Shown in pieces: positions 11,281-54,016 of a stretch of 64,000 nt of DNA; the first letter of the stretch is position 1, and each line of letters opens with the position of its first letter. The notes under the pieces are model-generated. The model worked only from the letters and a program-made list of their open reading frames with translations. It had not been told where the DNA came from and did no database searches. Position numbers and translations under genes: made by a program. The stretch is from the sequence record MZ189262.1; one strand, given 5' to 3'. Origin of the DNA: Escherichia phage W143.

Positions 11281-11883
11281 TTATAGATTAAATCCTTCAA
11301 AATCAAGAGTATAGATAGTGTATGTTGAATGCTTTTTATACTCATATCTATCTACAATTCTAAATACACTTCCAGCTGGTATCATTACTTCTTGTTCATC
11401 TGAAACTAATTCCATATTACGATAGCGATGGCTATCCGGAAACTTAAAACTCGGACTATATTCTTTACAACGTAGAGCTTTTATAGCATACTCCTGAAAA
11501 TTAAATACCATAGGAGCTTTGAATTCAAAAATAACTTGTGTGTTGTATTCTAATCCAGAAGCAAAATGTAGAGCTATATTTTTATCATATGAAGCTGATA
11601 CTACTTTATCAAATGTAATAATATCAATTCCTTGATTTAACACCTGCTTAGTCTCAACTGGAACACCTCTCCAAAGAGGTTTATCGTTTGGTTCCAAACG
11701 AGATTTGATTATTTCATTTAACCAAGAATGATCGTCTGGCTTATTAGTAATACAATGAATTAAAAGTTCAATTTCAGATAAATTAAATCCTTCAGAAAGT
11801 AATTCTTCACGAATAGAAGCACGCACCGATGCATCCATTGATTTGATTTTAAAATCTTTTAATTGCATTGCTGAATATTTCAT
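11281..11883 (-). CDS. modA: ModA ADP-ribosyltransferase
   Basis: 200-aa ORF; R (LWRGVP), S-x-S (VVSASY), E-x-E (EQEVMIP) triad. Confidence 0.85.
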   Translation of the reverse strand: MKYSAMQLKDFKIKSMDASVRASIREELLSEGFNLSEIELLIHCITNKPDDHSWLNEIIKSRLEPNDKPLWRGVPVETKQVLNQGIDIITFDKVVSASYDKNIALHFASGLEYNTQVIFEFKAPMVFNFQEYAIKALRCKEYSPSFKFPDSHRYRNMELVSDEQEVMIPAGSVFRIVDRYEYKKHSTYTIYTLDFEGFNL

Positions 11884-12515
11884 TCAACTACCTCAATATC
11901 ATACACTTTAAATGTTCCAAACGAATCGTGTAATTTTTCTTTTGAAATAGAAGTTATTTTATACTTTCCAATTGGAATCATCCATTCTTGTTCACGCACA
12001 ATCATCATTAAGTTATCAGTACGTTCTGAATCTAATCCATCAGTATCTTCATATGTATACTTAAACTCAGTATTAGGAGAAGAAAGTATAATATCGCTGA
12101 TATGGTCAGAGTAATTAAAAGCTTTATCAGTTTTTAAGCGAAGTACTATTTCAGTGAAATATTCAGCATAAGAAAAAGAACACGCTGTATGCAAACTAGT
12201 AGTAAATGAATCTACTCTGTTCGTTGAAAACACTTCTCCAACTTGTAAATCTTTAATGAGTTCTTTTGTCGATTTTGATATACCACGATATAACTGATAA
12301 GGTGATTCAGTTAAATGCTTTTTAACGATTTTATTCAACTGCCGATGAAGAGCTTCATTCTTTTTGGCTTCCATACATTGCCAAAGAACTGACTGTTCAA
12401 AGTCAGTAAATTTTTCACAGACCTTTTTATACATATCATATTGAAAATCAACGCTTTCAGCTTTTATAGATAACCGTTCAACATCTGCAAGATTAATAAT
12501 CATGATAGCCTCCAT
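11880..12515 (-). CDS. modB: ModB ADP-ribosyltransferase
   Basis: 211-aa ORF paralogous to modA (LYRGIS, FSTN, EQEWMIP). Confidence 0.85.
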   Translation of the reverse strand: MEAIMIINLADVERLSIKAESVDFQYDMYKKVCEKFTDFEQSVLWQCMEAKKNEALHRQLNKIVKKHLTESPYQLYRGISKSTKELIKDLQVGEVFSTNRVDSFTTSLHTACSFSYAEYFTEIVLRLKTDKAFNYSDHISDIILSSPNTEFKYTYEDTDGLDSERTDNLMMIVREQEWMIPIGKYKITSISKEKLHDSFGTFKVYDIEVVE

Positions 12516-48857: not shown

Positions 48858-49577
48858 TTAGGATTCTTTTAAATGTCTTTTCTGAAAAGTTGATACCATA
48901 CTACGATACGGTTCATTTGGATACCCGTGTTTTATAGCTTCCTTTGTAAATTTTCTCCATCCATATTTAGTTTCTTTCCAAAGCTCGAATAATTCATCTT
49001 CATACTGCCATATAGTTAAATGAGAACGCTTTGCAGCTTTAATTCCATTAATATGCTTTTCTTTTACTACAGGATTGCTTAGTTTCTTTTTAATAATATT
49101 ACTAACTTTTCTAACAAAAACTGGGTCCTTATATCGTTGCGAAGTTTTTATTGAAGTGTTTAATTTAGCTTCCGGTGTAGATGTGACCTCTTTCATCTTT
49201 TTCTTCATATGCTGTATATGATTAGGATTTTTCCATAAATTTATAGAATGCTTTTTGCATTTTATCCTAGTTTCATCTGCAACCTTTCCTCCTTCACCTC
49301 CGTATGACAGGTTAACACAGTTTTTTCCATATTTCAATTTACCTGCCATGATATATAATATTTCAGCTTGTACCATTTTATCATAATTATCAAAAACTTC
49401 TAAAACCGTTTTTGATAATATGTGGTCATTTGACACTTTTACACGTTCTATATAATTTCCACTACCAACATACGAATCATTGATGTTATTAGTTATATGT
49501 CGACCATAATAGTATTTCTTAATACCTGTCTTTAAATTTAATATTTCAGTTTTATAGATAGTAAAATATTTTTTCAT
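48858..49577 (-). CDS. putative degenerate GIY-YIG (Seg-like) endonuclease
   Basis: 239-aa ORF; N-terminal TIY...(12 aa)...YYG-R resembling GIY-YIG, lysine-rich C-terminal half; weak. Confidence 0.35.
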   Translation of the reverse strand: MKKYFTIYKTEILNLKTGIKKYYYGRHITNNINDSYVGSGNYIERVKVSNDHILSKTVLEVFDNYDKMVQAEILYIMAGKLKYGKNCVNLSYGGEGGKVADETRIKCKKHSINLWKNPNHIQHMKKKMKEVTSTPEAKLNTSIKTSQRYKDPVFVRKVSNIIKKKLSNPVVKEKHINGIKAAKRSHLTIWQYEDELFELWKETKYGWRKFTKEAIKHGYPNEPYRSMVSTFQKRHLKES

Positions 49578-50542
49578 TTTAATAATACCGTTTCAGCGAT
49601 TTCTTCCCAATGATTTTTGTCGGTCATAATAAAGTCAGCAAGATAAAGAGCAGTACGCAGTGAAACATTGCGTAAACGATTAACATTAACTTTCATCCAT
49701 GATAATGCTTTATAAGTTTCTTCATCAGAAAGACCGCGCTTTTGCATCATGTCAGTTGAAAGAATAACATCTTCAACCCTGACCATAATTTCTTCATTAG
49801 TGTGAACACCCAAATCTAAATAAACTGAGCGGGACACTAATGCTTGTAAATGTGGAGCAAGTTTAGTACCACGGTCTAATTCGCGGTCAATGTCAACGTT
49901 TGTGATAAAAACAATCGTTCCTTTAAATTCAAACTCACGGTCAATGCCTTTTTCTTCTAAGTAAGAAGATGCAGTGCTCCAGCAGACTTTACGGGTCTCT
50001 CCAGTGTCCAGAGCAGCTTTTAGAAGATTAAGAATGTCCATATCAGAGAAAACATCCACATCATCAATCAAAAGGACAGAATTCTCTTCACGATTATTCC
50101 AAAGCTGTTCATAAAGACCAATACCAGAGATTTTACCATTAATGCTTTTATATTCAATGTATCCATTATCATTTGCTTTATTTAAAGCTTTATCTAAAGA
50201 ATACGTTTTACCAATACCTGCTGCGCCAGAGATAATTAATGAACGAATATTTCCGTTAATAATACCATTCGTCATCATTCCCATAACATTAAATCTTTTA
50301 TTAATGCGGGTTTTCATATCTTCATATGATTCTTTAACTTCTTCAACTTTTACACCATCATATGAAATATCTGATTTGTAAACCCAAACACCGCGACGTT
50401 TACCGTCAATTTCAACAAAAACTTTACCATCTCCTTGTGCATCTACCGGAGCATTATCAGGGAACCACTCACCTAAGAGCTCAAAAGTTCCAGAGATTTC
50501 TTTACCGAAGTAGATACCCTTATTGATAGTTACAGTTTTCAT
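49574..50542 (-). CDS. P-loop NTPase
   Basis: track ORF trimmed to MKTVTINKG; Walker A GAAGIGKT and Walker B VLLIDDVD. Confidence 0.6.
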   Translation of the reverse strand: MKTVTINKGIYFGKEISGTFELLGEWFPDNAPVDAQGDGKVFVEIDGKRRGVWVYKSDISYDGVKVEEVKESYEDMKTRINKRFNVMGMMTNGIINGNIRSLIISGAAGIGKTYSLDKALNKANDNGYIEYKSINGKISGIGLYEQLWNNREENSVLLIDDVDVFSDMDILNLLKAALDTGETRKVCWSTASSYLEEKGIDREFEFKGTIVFITNVDIDRELDRGTKLAPHLQALVSRSVYLDLGVHTNEEIMVRVEDVILSTDMMQKRGLSDEETYKALSWMKVNVNRLRNVSLRTALYLADFIMTDKNHWEEIAETVLLK

Positions 50543-50579
50543 TTTATTCTCCAAATCTGTATCAGTAGTTGATAGTTGT

Positions 50580-50609
50580 ATAGTACCATAAAGCTTTATG
50601 CTTGTAAAC
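50580..50609 (-). promoter_or_regulatory. T4-type early promoter
   Basis: GTTTAC 50609-50604, 18 bp, TACTAT. Confidence 0.65.
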
Positions 50610-50620
50610 CGTTTTGTGAA

Positions 50621-50660
50621 AAAATTTTTGAAATAAAAAAGGGGGACCTCTAGGGCCCCC
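50621..50660 (-). terminator. intrinsic terminator
   Basis: GGGGGACC-TCTA-GGGCCCCC hairpin (one mismatch) followed on the minus strand by UUUUUUAUUU. Confidence 0.6.
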
Positions 50661-50671
50661 TTTGTGTTGAT

Positions 50672-51157
50672 TTATTCCATTTCTACTATATGCATGTTCT
50701 TTTTGCTATCAAAATATATGTTTTTAACTATTAACTCAGAATTAATTGGCAGTAAAAACTCTCTTTCATAATCTACCATACAAAGATTATCATAAAGCTT
50801 GTTAAGCTTATCATCGTCAGTTTGGCCAGATTCTTCAATTGCGATTAAATTTTCTAAAATGTCAATCATAGCAGTCGAATAGTCGAAAACGTTTGCATTT
50901 TTTAACACTACTAAAACATTAGTCATATAGCGTTCTGCCGCAAACGTTTCAGCTATATGAGACTCACTGCTAAAGGAAGTTATTCTTTTAAATTTGATTC
51001 TCCTATTAACTTCAAACTTATAAGATAACACTTCCTCTATTGTAAGTCCTCTAAAAAGTGTGTCTTTAATCTCAAGTTTGTCTTTAATGTAATCATTAAC
51101 ACGCTTATGATTAAAATCATTAATTTTGTTGCCAAGGCATTGCATTAAAATATGCAT
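50672..51157 (-). CDS. putative mini ADP-ribosyltransferase-like protein
   Basis: 161-aa ORF; R (LFRGLT), S-x-S (SFSSES) and E-x-E (YEREF) with spacing like ModA/ModB; inference only. Confidence 0.4.
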   Translation of the reverse strand: MHILMQCLGNKINDFNHKRVNDYIKDKLEIKDTLFRGLTIEEVLSYKFEVNRRIKFKRITSFSSESHIAETFAAERYMTNVLVVLKNANVFDYSTAMIDILENLIAIEESGQTDDDKLNKLYDNLCMVDYEREFLLPINSELIVKNIYFDSKKNMHIVEME

Positions 51158-51203
51158 TGTATTCTCCTCAATTTTTAAAGAGCAATTAATTAACTACACA
51201 TAT

Positions 51204-51233
51204 ATTATAATATGCTTTGCGATAGAAGTAAAC
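51204..51233 (-). promoter_or_regulatory. T4-type early promoter
   Basis: GTTTAC 51233-51228, 18 bp, TATAAT 51209-51204. Confidence 0.7.
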
Positions 51234-51250
51234 AACTTTGTGACGTCATT

Positions 51251-51279
51251 TTAAACAAAAAAAGGAGCCCGAAGGCTCC
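51251..51279 (-). terminator. intrinsic terminator
   Basis: GGAGCC-CGAA-GGCTCC hairpin followed on the minus strand by UUUUUUUGUUU. Confidence 0.7.
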
Positions 51280-51282
51280 CTA

Positions 51283-52296
51283 TCATTTATAATAACTTCG
51301 GTGGTTTTCAAGATAAACCCTCTCAAGGAAGTCATCCCAGAAACCCATGTCTACTTTTTGCTGCATACCGTTCTTAGAAGCTTCAATGGATGCTGCTTCT
51401 ACTTGATCGACCACATCTTCCAAAAACTCTTGAACAGTTTTAAATGGATGCTTACCCAACTTCACGTCGAGAATAAATGGAGCATCTTGGAGTGGATAAA
51501 CCAAGTCACCAGTTTTGTAAATTTCCAATAGTTGGAGTCCACCACGACAAGCATGACTCAGAGCTTTCCAGTCAATACCCTCATTAGCTTCAGCCTTACG
51601 AGCGCGTTCACCGTATTCGGCATCAAGTTTATTCAAAGACTGCTTAAGCTCAATAAGAGAAAGCGTTGTCTGATATTTACGACCCAACACAGTATAGAAC
51701 GTTTGCGGGCCTGTTTTCTCATGATTATGGAATACCCATTCACAGAACTCGTTTTCTGGAAGACGATGCTTAATATCTTCAACTTTAGTTCGACGCTGCT
51801 TAATGGAACCGTCTTCTTGGTAATCAACCCATTGCTCAGGGATTTGATTAACTACTTTCAATACATCACGTAATGCGGCCAAACGAGAACCCTTAACACC
51901 ATATTTAGAAGCTTGCTTGCGAACATATCCTAAATAGGATTTCATGTTAGTCGTATAAAAACGAGAACGATTGTCTTGGATAAATTTCCATACATCAGGC
52001 AAATCTGATTTAACCACTAGCTCAGGTGGAGTGTGAAGCATATCCAATGCTACAGTTTCACCATCTGCTGCTAATTTAAAGAAATACTTAAGACTGTATA
52101 GTTCATGGTCAATATCATCTTTAGTGTTTTTAGATGATGTGTTGTTAGTGTTTTTACTCATATGCTCTTTAACATTTCCGATAAGAATATCACGAGCAGG
52201 AGGAACAAAGATTTCTTTAAAATCTACATCAGATTCTGGAGTAGAAGTTCCATAAAGATGACTACCAAAATAGCTTTTCATTACTGTTTTCATCAT
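51283..52296 (-). CDS. nucleotidyltransferase-fold protein (Pol-beta superfamily)
   Basis: 337-aa ORF; N-terminal GS-x3-G-x5-SDVD signature (YFGSHLYGTSTPESDVDF). Confidence 0.5.
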   Translation of the reverse strand: MMKTVMKSYFGSHLYGTSTPESDVDFKEIFVPPARDILIGNVKEHMSKNTNNTSSKNTKDDIDHELYSLKYFFKLAADGETVALDMLHTPPELVVKSDLPDVWKFIQDNRSRFYTTNMKSYLGYVRKQASKYGVKGSRLAALRDVLKVVNQIPEQWVDYQEDGSIKQRRTKVEDIKHRLPENEFCEWVFHNHEKTGPQTFYTVLGRKYQTTLSLIELKQSLNKLDAEYGERARKAEANEGIDWKALSHACRGGLQLLEIYKTGDLVYPLQDAPFILDVKLGKHPFKTVQEFLEDVVDQVEAASIEASKNGMQQKVDMGFWDDFLERVYLENHRSYYK

Positions 52297-52754
52297 TCAG
52301 CCTTATATTCAATAACAGGACATACTTTAGCTTTACGGGCTTTTAAAAATTCGACGATAATAGATTTCTTGGGTTGAATAGGAGGTAAACCTTTATACGC
52401 CCTATCAATATTTTCTACATGTAAAGCATAATCCTTTTTCCATTTATAATCTTTATATTTTTCATGCAGTTGTGCAGGAATAACAAATGAACCGATAATA
52501 AGTAAAACAAGCAAAATGGCAAGTATAAATGCTGATGGAATAAGAGTCCATAAACTACCAAAAATAAGCCATTTCTGTATGATTTCTGCGCAGATAATAG
52601 TTAGACCTGCGAGTATAGTACATCCGAAAAAAGAAACGAAAAATGTAGGGATAACAATAGACCAAAAGTATGCACACAGTGTCTTAGGTCGTTTCCATTC
52701 ATCATTAAACATTTTGAATAATTTATAGTGCCAAGAGCTTTCATTAATAATCAT
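52293..52754 (-). CDS. membrane protein
   Basis: 153-aa ORF with about three TM helices. Confidence 0.5.
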   Translation of the reverse strand: MIINESSWHYKLFKMFNDEWKRPKTLCAYFWSIVIPTFFVSFFGCTILAGLTIICAEIIQKWLIFGSLWTLIPSAFILAILLVLLIIGSFVIPAQLHEKYKDYKWKKDYALHVENIDRAYKGLPPIQPKKSIIVEFLKARKAKVCPVIEYKAE

Positions 52755-52756
52755 AA

Positions 52757-53278
52757 TTATCCTTTCATTGAAGGTGTAACAGTTGTTAAATACTTAATCA
52801 TAGCTTCAGCTTCTGATTTTGATAATGAAATTTCTCCATTGTTTTGACGAATAGAAATAAAATCCGGATGACGGTCACCACCAGCTTTTAAAACACACAT
52901 ATAAGTATCAGTTTCATCTTCAATATTTGAAATGATTGAAGCAGTTCCACATGAATGCGGTTTTTGATAAATTAATACAGCTTTTCTTCCACCGTTTGAC
53001 TGTTCATAAACTTTTAACACATCAAACAAATCACTTCTTTTATCAATAGCTAAGATGTTGTTTTCATCTTCAATGTTAAATCCTTCGGATACTTCATAAA
53101 GTGTCACCCATAAATCACCTATATCGATAGTAGCATTTACTTTTCCACGGATTTCAAGAGCATGACAAATTTTCTTGATTTCGTCATAACTCATTTTAAT
53201 AATATCATCTCCTTGAATAAGGAAGATGTCATTTTTAAATTCAACACGAATTAAACCGCTTTCACTTGAAATAAACAT
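52757..53278 (-). CDS. hypothetical protein (tandem paralog A)
   Basis: 173-aa ORF; GFNIE and C-terminal ...MIKYLTTVTPSM shared with the adjacent gene. Confidence 0.5.
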   Translation of the reverse strand: MFISSESGLIRVEFKNDIFLIQGDDIIKMSYDEIKKICHALEIRGKVNATIDIGDLWVTLYEVSEGFNIEDENNILAIDKRSDLFDVLKVYEQSNGGRKAVLIYQKPHSCGTASIISNIEDETDTYMCVLKAGGDRHPDFISIRQNNGEISLSKSEAEAMIKYLTTVTPSMKG

Positions 53279-53284
53279 ATTTCC

Positions 53285-53827
53285 TCACTTTGAAATCATA
53301 GTTGGAATGACAGAATCAAGATAAGTCTTTAGCGCAATAGCTTCGTCTTTGGTAAATGTGACAATATGTGATCGAAAATCATCAATTTGACGAATAGTTA
53401 AGACATCTCCCTCTTCATAACATTTTGATACATTTAAAAGAGTTTCATCATTCTGATCGCACTGATCACAAGCGTTAGTAATAATAGCATTGCAATTTTT
53501 AAGCCATTTTAAACTATGTTTTCTTTCATTAGAATAATAAAAATATTTAACGTAAGTTATAAAATTATCCCAATTATTAATTGATAAGCATATTGACTCG
53601 CTTTCAATATTAAATCCTGGGCATAAAGAATAAAAATGAATTTTATGCTCATCATTAATGCTTACAATTTTATCAGTGTAAGGATTTTCAATTTGGGTTA
53701 AATGAATGATTTCACTGGGCGTAAAATACAGCATATCGTCTTCTTGCGTCAAACGATACATATTATTTACTTTTTCTATAGCCAATTCACCAAAAAGTGA
53801 ACTAACTTCTAGTACTAATCGTTTCAT
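53285..53827 (-). CDS. hypothetical protein (tandem paralog B)
   Basis: track ORF begins at GTG; trimmed to ATG (MKRLVLEV); C-terminal ...LKTYLDSVIPTM. Confidence 0.5.
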   Translation of the reverse strand: MKRLVLEVSSLFGELAIEKVNNMYRLTQEDDMLYFTPSEIIHLTQIENPYTDKIVSINDEHKIHFYSLCPGFNIESESICLSINNWDNFITYVKYFYYSNERKHSLKWLKNCNAIITNACDQCDQNDETLLNVSKCYEEGDVLTIRQIDDFRSHIVTFTKDEAIALKTYLDSVIPTMISK

Positions 53828-53986
53828 ATTGATTCTCTTCGACTCACTCACAATTACATACTCCTTTGAATAATATCAATAATGTTGTTCACAAGATTAT
53901 AAGTAAACATTGGGTAATTATATTGAATCATCACATACACAACAAACAAAACTTTCATTCTCTTCTCCTTGGCAGTTGACAAGATT

Positions 53987-54016
53987 ACTATACCATAACC
54001 TTGCCAACTTGTAAAC
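53987..54016 (-). promoter_or_regulatory. T4-type early promoter
   Basis: GTTTAC 54016-54011, 18 bp, TATAGT. Confidence 0.6.

Follow-up and report, generated by a model that had tools for sequence, protein, structure and literature searches.

Two adjacent open reading frames on the minus strand of Escherichia phage W143 (MZ189262.1) raise the question of what enzymes they encode and whether their proximity has a functional meaning. The DNA analysed was a stretch of 64,000 nucleotides (hereafter the window), the source of which is a T2-like Tequatrovirus. The two are very likely unrelated early genes of the variable nrdC-mobD region that became neighbours through insertion, one encoding a compact third Mod mono-ADP-ribosyltransferase of the R-S-E type and the other the RlaP-family protein NrdC.11. 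An earlier note, made from the letters of this DNA, had described both reading frames (161 and 337 amino acids) with their motifs, and these were confirmed on the minus strand at the coordinates in Table 1. Neither gene is a new discovery, as both identities are already available by homology in RefSeq, UniProt and Pfam; the exact proteins are named 'RNA polymerase ADP-ribosylase' (161 aa) and 'nucleotidyltransferase' (337 aa), and the Pfam families covering them are Mod_ADP_RT and RlaP, respectively.

Table 1. Coordinates of the genes and expression signals at the locus (positions in the window)
Feature	Position	Strand	Remarks
nrdC.10 early promoter, T4-type, GTTTACA-N17-TACTAT	50580..50609	-	Conserved with T4; downstream cassette edge
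Intrinsic terminator 3' of the 161-aa gene	50642..50660	-	7-bp stem with 6 G-C pairs, then T-run; stem-loop half of the downstream PeSL-like element
Gene for the predicted 161-aa compact Mod-family (R-S-E) ADP-ribosyltransferase	50672..51157	-	Third paralog beside ModA and ModB
Shine-Dalgarno sequence GAGGAG	51164..51169	-	Read from the sequence; 6 nt 5' of the ATG of the 161-aa gene
T4-type early promoter of the 161-aa gene, GTTTACT-N17-TATAAT	51204..51233	-	Consensus; promoter half of the upstream PeSL-like element
Intrinsic terminator directly 3' of the nrdC.11 stop	51262..51281	-	8-bp stem and T7; common to T4; upstream cassette edge
nrdC.11, predicted 337-aa RlaP-family Pol-beta nucleotidyltransferase	51283..52296	-	Conserved G11-S12, D23-x-D25, D63, Q128/R231/K244/R251
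Nearest strict T4-type early promoter 5' of nrdC.11	53987..54016	-	Three genes away

The 161-aa protein contains the motifs F35-R36-G37, S61-F-S63 and E131-R-E133, with R to S and S to E spacings of 25 and 70 residues. The corresponding spacings are 24 and 67 in ModA (R72/S96/E163) and 26 and 72 in ModB (R77/S103/E175, window numbering), in good agreement with the ModA- and ModB-like arrangement noticed earlier. The loose R-S-E motif is by itself weak evidence, because it was also found in about 6% of shuffles of the protein; it is more than chance because of the homology to ModA, ModB and phrog_832. BLASTP aligned the protein with the window's ModA (3e-12, 29% identity) and ModB (3e-15, 30% identity), and phrog_832, annotated as 'RNA polymerase ADP-ribosylase', matched it at 7e-24. 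The Pfam family Mod_ADP_RT (PF26816) is carried by its homologs as well as by ModA and ModB. Judged by these matches, the protein is a true paralog of the window's ModA and ModB. Scans with Pfam and NCBIfam gave no match for the 161-aa protein, ModA or ModB, which is no argument against an ADP-ribosyltransferase (ART) identity since the Mod_ADP_RT model postdates the Pfam release used, and a PDB sequence search with the 161-aa protein returned nothing useful. Conservation of the motif among homologs was high: in 82 family representatives R36-G37 was kept throughout, S61 in 80, S or T at position 63 in 81, and E131 and E133 in 80 each. All catalytic motif residues were also intact in homologs with 93%, 61% and 52% identity to the 161-aa protein.

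Structure prediction pointed in the same direction. The AlphaFold model of the 161-aa protein had a pLDDT of 95.6, and a Foldseek search of the PDB with this model placed Tre1, C3bot, ExoS, Vip2 and iota-Ia at the top with a probability of 1.0, while a search of BFVD gave TMq values of 0.79–0.89 to predicted ModB and ModA structures. An ART fold is thus predicted with confidence and, together with the BLASTP matches to ModA and ModB and the motif conservation across 82 members, supports the additional compact ADP-ribosyltransferase that the earlier note had suspected. Tre1 (6drh), the C3 exoenzymes, ExoS and Vip2/iota-Ia share the ART core fold and the arrangement of the catalytic triad with the model, but these R-S-E toxins are only 10–17% identical to the 161-aa protein, at TMq values of about 0.45–0.55. 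Unlike the bacterial toxins, the phage protein is not accompanied by secretion, translocation or immunity partners, and it is much smaller than the binary toxins.

Compared with ModA and ModB of T4, the 161-aa protein is 29–30% identical over about 140 residues and has the same [YFW]-R-G, S-x-S/T and E-x-E motifs with like spacing, a similar predicted fold (TM 0.8–0.9) and similar early-gene expression signals. It differs from them in length, with 161 residues against 200–211, as it lacks the N-terminal segment of about 40 residues; the alignment begins at around residue 38 of ModA, and an upstream in-frame stop blocks any N-terminal extension of the reading frame. This segment is not general to Pfam Mod_ADP_RT, which has other compact members. 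BLAST and NJ analysis placed the 161-aa protein outside the ModA+ModB clade, among compact Mod proteins, with the compact Mod clusters P0139 and P0141 as its nearest outgroup. In stretches of about 8 kb retrieved from the region of the canonical mod locus in other T4-like phages, members of these two clusters were the sole Mod gene called. Such distant compact Mods (P0139, P0141 and others) are likewise short (175–189 aa) and belong to the same Pfam family, but are only about 28–32% identical to the 161-aa protein; they lie between Y01E/soc and dda at the canonical locus, whereas the gene in the window is an extra copy elsewhere. It occupies a cassette of its own in the nrdC-mobD variable region, in contrast to modA and modB of T4 at the srd-modA-modB locus, and, unlike them, occurs in a minority of T-even phages only. 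A gene with at least 90% identity was found in 43 phage records; T2 and some 40 sequenced relatives have it, but T4 does not. A tblastn match in Gaprivervirus (H34, about 30–33%) was considered as another third Mod and rejected, being an ordinary tandem modA/modB-type locus. No described third Mod paralog was found in the literature.

E-x-E is the classical arginine-specific signature of R-S-E protein ARTs; the target of ModA is the alpha subunit of RNA polymerase (R265), and those of ModB are S1, EF-Tu and trigger factor. The compact Mod would be made in the first minutes of infection, would bind NAD+ through R36, the arginine expected at the phosphate, and S61-x-S63, and would use it to ADP-ribosylate arginines on at least one host protein, with E131-x-E133 as the putative catalytic, arginine-directing ARTT motif. 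Its target set probably differs from those of ModA and ModB given the unlike N-terminus. The RefSeq name may be wrong about the target, since the protein lacks the ModA/ModB N-terminal segment and the name was transferred by homology only.

It is conceivable, if on the whole improbable, that the compact Mod has another substrate or purpose than ModA's RNA polymerase, namely attachment of NAD-capped RNA (RNAylation), ADP-ribosylation of nucleic acid, or an anti-defence activity. There are precedents in that ModB performs RNAylation (PMC10468400) and phage ARTs can serve as anti-CRISPRs (PMC12421852). The position outside the ModA+ModB clade and the missing N-terminal segment would fit such a departure, as would the accessory nature of the gene, with about 43 records only, as is usual for counter-defence cargo of hyperplastic regions. 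However, the sequence does not discriminate among these substrate options, the E-x-E motif argues for arginines of proteins, and the finding of P0139 and P0141 as sole Mod genes at the canonical locus suggests a general role in host takeover rather than a specialised one. A related and similarly improbable reading would be that the compact Mod represents a distinct third class of T-even ART with a target of its own (not RNA polymerase but a factor of host defence or translation, or else NAD-capped RNA or nucleic acid), spread as a PeSL cassette that alters the hosts infected or the defences overcome.

The 337-aa protein, NrdC.11, is 98.8% identical to NrdC.11 of T4T, and its gene was found in 1564 phage records. 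The Pol-beta signature GS-x3-G-x5-SDVD described earlier lies at residues 11–25, and Pfam RlaP (PF10127) matched well above its cut-off (43.8 bits against 23; E 3.3e-11) over residues 7–135 only. RlaP was also matched by 14 out of 15 diverse NrdC.11 members, the best with an E value of 5.8e-15. Across homologs down to about 23% identity, the residues G11, S12, G16, D23, D25, D63, Q128, R231, K244 and R251 were kept in 43–45 of 45 sequences, so that profile search and conservation of the G-S, D-x-D and D positions both support the nucleotidyltransferase assignment. An hhalign comparison with canonical RlaP (E 1.8e-4, probability 49%) brought the GS, DxD and D63 positions into register, D63 aligning to the invariant Asp of canonical RlaP. 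With both Pfam and hhalign the alignment covered the N-terminal half, leaving the C-terminal half unaligned. PDB sequence searches with the protein and with its profile yielded nothing useful. An AlphaFold model of NrdC.11, built from a shallow alignment (at least 78% identity), had a pLDDT of 58, with residues 1–98 below 50; the best Foldseek hit with this poor model had an E value of 0.6, and both model and search were discarded. On the profile and residue evidence NrdC.11 is predicted to be a nucleotidyltransferase of the Pol-beta superfamily and the RlaP family.

T4-type phages encode a Pnk/Rnl1 repair pathway. Of 38 NrdC.11-like genes in bacterial genomes or MAGs, at least 10 have a gene for RNA repair or a related function as their immediate neighbour. 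The neighbours include a Pnkp gene upstream and RlaP and RNA ligase genes downstream (order Pnkp, NrdC.11-like, RlaP, RNA ligase; L032), a kinase-phosphatase-Rnl1 fusion (L025), ATP-dependent ligases (L028, L036), HD_4 (L021, L036), a CCA-adding enzyme (L056, L058) and canonical RlaP (L026, L037, L042). RlaP enzymes of Pseudomonas add one or two NMPs to RNA 3'-OH ends, the characterised RlaPs use RNA 3'-OH substrates only, and T4 NrdC.11 has been placed in the RlaP family as 'cluster 5', listed as of unknown function (bioRxiv 10.64898/2025.12.29.696909). In line with this, NrdC.11 shares with RlaP (PF10127; PfRlaP/PaRlaP) the Pfam match above cut-off and the G-S...D-x-D...D set, and bacterial members of its clade sit in RNA-repair gene clusters. 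It is longer, at about 330 aa against about 265 aa for canonical RlaP, and its C-terminal half does not align to canonical RlaP. In the crystal structure of PfRlaP the NTase fold is joined to a C-terminal helical domain. The NrdC.11 type often occurs in tandem with canonical RlaP, a co-occurrence that implies a distinct role for it. We infer that NrdC.11 is an RNA 3'-end nucleotidyltransferase for RNA repair, which would extend RNA 3'-OH ends by one or a few nucleotides and so help the phage to mend tRNA, or other RNA, that host nucleases have damaged.

It seems unlikely that NrdC.11 is instead a Pol-beta nucleotidyltransferase with a non-repair substrate, such as a protein, which it would AMPylate, a small molecule or nucleotide signal, or the acceptor ends of tRNA, whose modification would block host translation (MenT/AbiEii-like). 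The Pol-beta superfamily is functionally very diverse, the RlaP match is limited to the N-terminal catalytic half, there is a weak N-terminal likeness to the MntA adenylyltransferase (E 0.059, far below cut-off), and no RNA ligase or kinase gene, nor other repair gene, adjoins nrdC.11 in the phage window. Against these points stand the direct flanking of bacterial clade members by Pnkp, RNA ligase, HD, CCA-adding enzyme and canonical RlaP genes, the restriction of characterised RlaPs to RNA 3'-OH ends (bioRxiv 10.64898/2025.12.29.696909) and the Pnk/Rnl1 pathway of T4-type phages, which such an enzyme could feed. The earlier note had thought host-takeover or anti-defence enzymes plausible; in the case of NrdC.11, the bacterial neighbours and the preprint speak more for RNA repair than for such a generic role.

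The two genes are expressed from different signals. The start of nrdC.11 is an ATGA overlap with the upstream reading frame, although translation may in fact begin at the second ATG (52293); the gene is translationally coupled to its upstream neighbour and lacks a promoter of its own. The strict early promoter closest to it on the upstream side probably starts an operon, inferred to comprise genes for two y05I-like proteins (188 and 173 aa) and a membrane protein of 153 aa, followed by nrdC.11. A promoter-like match at 52522..52495 was rejected as nrdC.11's own promoter, because it falls inside the coding sequence of the preceding gene and does not show GTTTAC, the signature of early promoters. 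Of the two early promoters claimed earlier, one for each gene, only that of the 161-aa gene therefore stands, whereas both strong terminators proved to be genuine consensus matches (Table 1).

The gap between nrdC.11 and nrdC.10 is 114 nt in T4T and 740 nt in the window. The difference is a 626-bp cassette, absent from T4, that consists of an early promoter, the 161-aa gene and a terminator; compared with T4, the insert runs from 3' of the shared terminator's T-run to the T-run of the second terminator. On both sides of the 161-aa gene a terminator is followed by a promoter, the latter agreeing with the early consensus TTTACW-N17-TAYWAT (PMC4122927). The unit is an insertion between nrdC.11 and nrdC.10, bounded by terminator-plus-early-promoter elements of the PeSL type (PMC2839356, PMC4122927). 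As in PeSL cassettes of T4-type phages, the indel gene lies in a hyperplastic region and has on either side a stem-loop terminator and then TTTACW-N17-TAYWAT; the two stem-loops here differ in sequence. A homolog with 61% identity to the 161-aa gene is found between regA and gene 43, where it too is equipped with a promoter-like site and a terminator, and this related gene elsewhere with similar signals gives indirect support for mobility of the cassette.

These features bear on two further explanations. It is highly improbable that the 161-aa reading frame is a decaying, N-terminally truncated and catalytically dead copy of ModA or ModB. It is about 40 residues shorter than both, and T-even phages do carry broken mod genes, modB of T2 being annotated as fragments of 142 and 42 aa; yet all catalytic motif residues are intact, also in the 93%, 61% and 52% identical homologs, the predicted fold is complete and confident, the gene has a promoter, strong RBS and terminator of its own, and compact Mods of 175–189 aa are the sole Mod called at the canonical locus in the stretches from other T4-like phages. 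The chance is equally slight that the ART and nucleotidyltransferase genes work together as a module, with one enzyme modifying, for example, a substrate processed by the other: the genes are adjacent on a common strand and the homolog P0003 is also downstream of an RlaP gene, but a terminator and a separate promoter intervene, nrdC.11 occurs in 1564 phage records against 43 for the ART gene, T4 has nrdC.10 directly after nrdC.11, the 61%-identical homolog lies at another locus, and the recurring neighbour families of bacterial NrdC.11-like genes are of RNA repair and include no ART. Such a module is largely refuted by distribution, and functional coupling was rejected on this ground together with the intervening signals and the other loci of ART relatives. 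The adjacency pointed out in the earlier note carries no functional meaning, because only a minority of phages have the 626-bp insertion that holds the ART gene, and relatives of this gene are found elsewhere.

Neither gene identification overturns present understanding, and the public names given by homology were already correct. Since T4 tolerates deletions of nrdC.11 through mobD.3 and of modA-B (PMC9825161), any role of the two genes would be conditional. More than 1500 Straboviridae genomes have a conserved NrdC.11, and the links of its clade to Pnkp, ligases and CCA-adding enzymes suggest a concrete, testable role beside the tRNA repair by Pnk/Rnl1 in T4. Reprogramming of the host by a virus is classically illustrated by the ARTs of T4, and protein RNAylation came to light recently through ModB. 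With the compact third Mod, nature provides a comparison from which to learn what determines target choice among Mod enzymes and whether accessory ARTs may tune host range.

The two adjacent genes are independent: one encodes a compact, cassette-borne Mod ADP-ribosyltransferase (ART) of 161 amino acids that is rare among phages, the other the near-universal NrdC.11, an RlaP-type nucleotidyltransferase. Both open reading frames lie exactly where the earlier note had placed them (Table), and its observation was confirmed for both; its fold assignments were judged right, for NrdC.11 on sequence evidence. A nucleotide search with a 2.1-kb query around the two genes matched 603 phage records, the best matches being Escherichia and Salmonella Tequatrovirus genomes (96–98% identical; T2 94%). 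All genes of the nrdC.11 region are on the minus strand. RefSeq T2 lists the counterparts as T2_097 ('RNA polymerase ADP-ribosylase') and nrdC.11 ('nucleotidyltransferase'), with nrdC.10 on one side and the mobD region on the other; in SV76 the 161-aa gene is called 'ModA', and ANH50234.1 is an example of a prior entry with the identical sequence. RefSeq, UniProt and Pfam thus already give both genes these names on the basis of homology, and a literature search for a third Mod paralog found no paper describing one.

Table. Coordinates of genes and transcription signals in the window
Feature	Coordinates	Strand	Details
ModA	11281-11883		200 aa
ModB	11880-12515		211 aa, intact
239-aa ORF	48858-49577	-	phrog_314
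NrdC.10	49574-50554	-	true start probably ATG at 50542
Strict early-promoter match	50609..50580	-	
G+C-rich hairpin and T-run	50660..50642	-	3' of 161-aa gene
161-aa gene	50672..51157	-	compact Mod ART
GAGGAG	six nt 5' of ATG	-	161-aa gene
Early promoter, strict T4-type match	51233..51204	-	161-aa gene; GTTTACT-N17-TATAAT
nrdC.11 terminator	51281..51262		
nrdC.11	51283..52296	-	337 aa
Membrane protein and two y05I-like genes	52293-53851	-	153, 173 and 188 aa
Strict early-promoter match	54016..53987	-	

Upstream of nrdC.11 are a membrane protein gene (phrog_944) and two tandem paralogs resembling the putative T4 transcription factor y05I (Pfam T4_y05I_N, T4_y05I_C); T4 instead has the HNH endonuclease gene mobD. 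NrdC.10 is a P-loop AAA/STAND-like ATPase of phrog_1250, a family of unknown function, with sub-threshold Pfam matches only (nSTAND3, AAA_16, AAA_22). The 239-aa ORF between nrdC.9 and nrdC.10, overlapping the nrdC.10 stop, matched a homing-endonuclease family (1e-29) and had no Pfam match; in T2 and T4 the corresponding stretch is only ~100 nt long, so that the ORF resembles an inserted free-standing Seg-like endonuclease gene.

BLASTP aligned ~140 residues of the 161-aa protein with ModA (29% identity, E 3e-12) and ModB (30% identity, E 3e-15), and phrog_832 was also matched (7e-24). The local Pfam copy had no model for any of these three proteins; in precomputed Pfam, PF26816 (Mod_ADP_RT) spans homologs of the 161-aa protein together with the ModA and ModB clusters. 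A profile searched against 1.84 billion representatives identified 98 family clusters, 82 of which were aligned. R36-G37 was kept in 82/82, S61 in 80, S/T63 in 81, and E131 and E133 in 80 each, bearing out the ART motif proposed earlier. The R-S and S-E spacings are 25 and 70 residues, compared with 24/67 in ModA and 26/72 in ModB. About 6% of shuffles of the protein carried the loose R-S-E motif, and the case for a predicted ART rests on homology, not on the motif. The AlphaFold model, built from a 78-sequence alignment (pLDDT 95.6, pTM 0.88), agrees with an ART fold: the top Foldseek matches in the PDB were R-S-E ARTs only, all at probability 1.0 (Tre1 (6drh), C3 exoenzymes, XopAI, ExoS, Vip2, iota-Ia, CDTa and Vis), and among predicted viral structures it matched the ModB and ModA models from several T4-like phages (TMq 0.79–0.89). 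With the fold predicted and the motifs conserved, neither of the two objections anticipated in the earlier note, lack of the fold and lack of conservation, applies, which favours an ART.

Unlike ModA and ModB, the 161-aa protein is without their N-terminal segment, since the alignment starts at about their residue 38 and an in-frame stop bars a longer ORF. BLAST scores and a neighbour-joining tree placed it in its own clade with three homolog clusters (93%, 61% and 52% identical), nested in a nine-member clade of compact 175–189-aa Mod proteins outside the clade containing ModA and ModB. Two compact outgroup proteins are the sole Mod gene called in the fetched ~8-kb canonical-locus stretches of other T4-like contigs, between Y01E/soc and dda. 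The compact form would therefore be an ordinary variant of the enzyme, presumably a functional one, and not a truncation remnant. In RefSeq T2 (NC_054931; locus L065, 2152-2773), modB is annotated as two pieces (142 aa and a 42-aa ORF) and is apparently disrupted, yet T2 has the compact third Mod gene. A 40-member protein cluster (P0128) comprises 157-aa Mod proteins truncated C-terminally.

The nrdC.11-nrdC.10 gap is 114 nt in T4T and 740 nt in the window. T4 sequence aligns through the nrdC.11 terminator and picks up again at the T-run of the second terminator, past which the window and T4 are near-identical across nrdC.10 and its promoter. The extra 626 bp consist of the early promoter, GAGGAG, the 161-aa gene and the hairpin, in that order. 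Each flank is a terminator followed by TTTACW-N17-TAYWAT, the composite promoter-early stem-loop (PeSL) motif to which modular shuffling in T4-type phages has been attributed (PMC2839356, PMC4122927). By tblastn, the 161-aa gene was ≥90% identical in only 43 phage records, against 1564 for nrdC.11. The 61% relative is located between regA and gene 43, with a promoter-like site within its over-called N-terminus and a terminator 3' of the gene; the 52% relative has an RlaP gene upstream of it. Judged from sequence, the 161-aa gene is a rare, insertable unit. Some close relatives (phage matches H14, H23-H25, among them ACG-C40, NC_019399 51109-53685) carry an additional ~475–730-bp insertion in the same interval, annotated in ACG-C40 as a DUF4031 protein; these extra insertions mark the gap as a cassette-insertion hotspot.

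The earlier note gave each gene an early promoter of its own; this held for the ART gene and not for nrdC.11, whose start overlaps the membrane-protein ORF (ATGA) and whose nearest strict upstream match is at 54016..53987. Most likely, nrdC.11 closes an operon that runs from the 54016 promoter to the nrdC.11 terminator. The whole window contains 23 strict GTTTAC-N16-18-TAnnnT matches on the minus strand, and many early-promoter matches have the form GTTTAC(A/T)...TGGTA(T/C)(A/T)AT, a dense array as expected for an early-gene region.

NrdC.11 is 98.8% identical to its T4T counterpart and has 2897 detected homologs. It matched Pfam RlaP (PF10127; 43.8 bits, cut-off 23) over residues 7-135 and phrog_388 'nucleotidyltransferase' (7e-137). 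The GS-x3-G-x5-SDVD signature noted earlier is present at residues 11-25. G11, S12, G16, D23, D25, D63 (the third carboxylate), Q128, R231, K244 and R251 were kept in 43–45 of 45 phage and bacterial/MAG homologs, down to ~23% identity. The Pfam match and conserved catalytic residues uphold its prediction as a nucleotidyltransferase. In an hhalign comparison with four canonical RlaPs (E 1.8e-4, probability 49%), the GS, DxD and D63 positions lined up, the match being limited to the N-terminal domain. AlphaFold from a shallow alignment gave a poor model (pLDDT 58), on which Foldseek was uninformative.

A December 2025 preprint showed that RlaPs from Pseudomonas extend RNA 3'-OH ends by one or two NMPs, with a preference for damaged RNA (bioRxiv 10.64898/2025.12.29.696909). 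It proposed that, ahead of ligation, these enzymes replace nucleotides taken off by 'smart' ribotoxins, RloC being an example, and it put T4 NrdC.11 in SSN cluster 5, function unknown. In bacterial/MAG contigs, repair or RNA 3'-end genes directly abut the NrdC.11-like gene in at least 10 of 38 cases. They include a kinase-phosphatase-Rnl1 fusion whose end lies 4 nt upstream (L025), ATP-dependent ligases (L028, L036), HD_4 phosphohydrolases (L021, L036) and CCA-adding/poly(A) polymerase-type enzymes (L056, L058). These neighbours support a candidate role for the NrdC.11 clade as RNA 3'-end nucleotidyltransferases in end-healing and sealing. Pnk and Rnl1 are encoded elsewhere in T-even phages and would be the repair partners of NrdC.11 there. 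A NrdC.11-like gene (~325 aa) has a canonical RlaP gene (~268 aa) immediately downstream of it in L026 (5004-6777), L037, L042 and L032 (2384-7836), in the last of which Pnkp precedes and RNA ligase follows the pair; two different RlaP-type enzymes per repair operon suggest a division of labour not addressed by the RlaP preprint. As T4 is viable without nrdC.11 through mobD.3, and without modA-B (PMC9825161), the functions of NrdC.11 and the Mod enzymes would be conditional.
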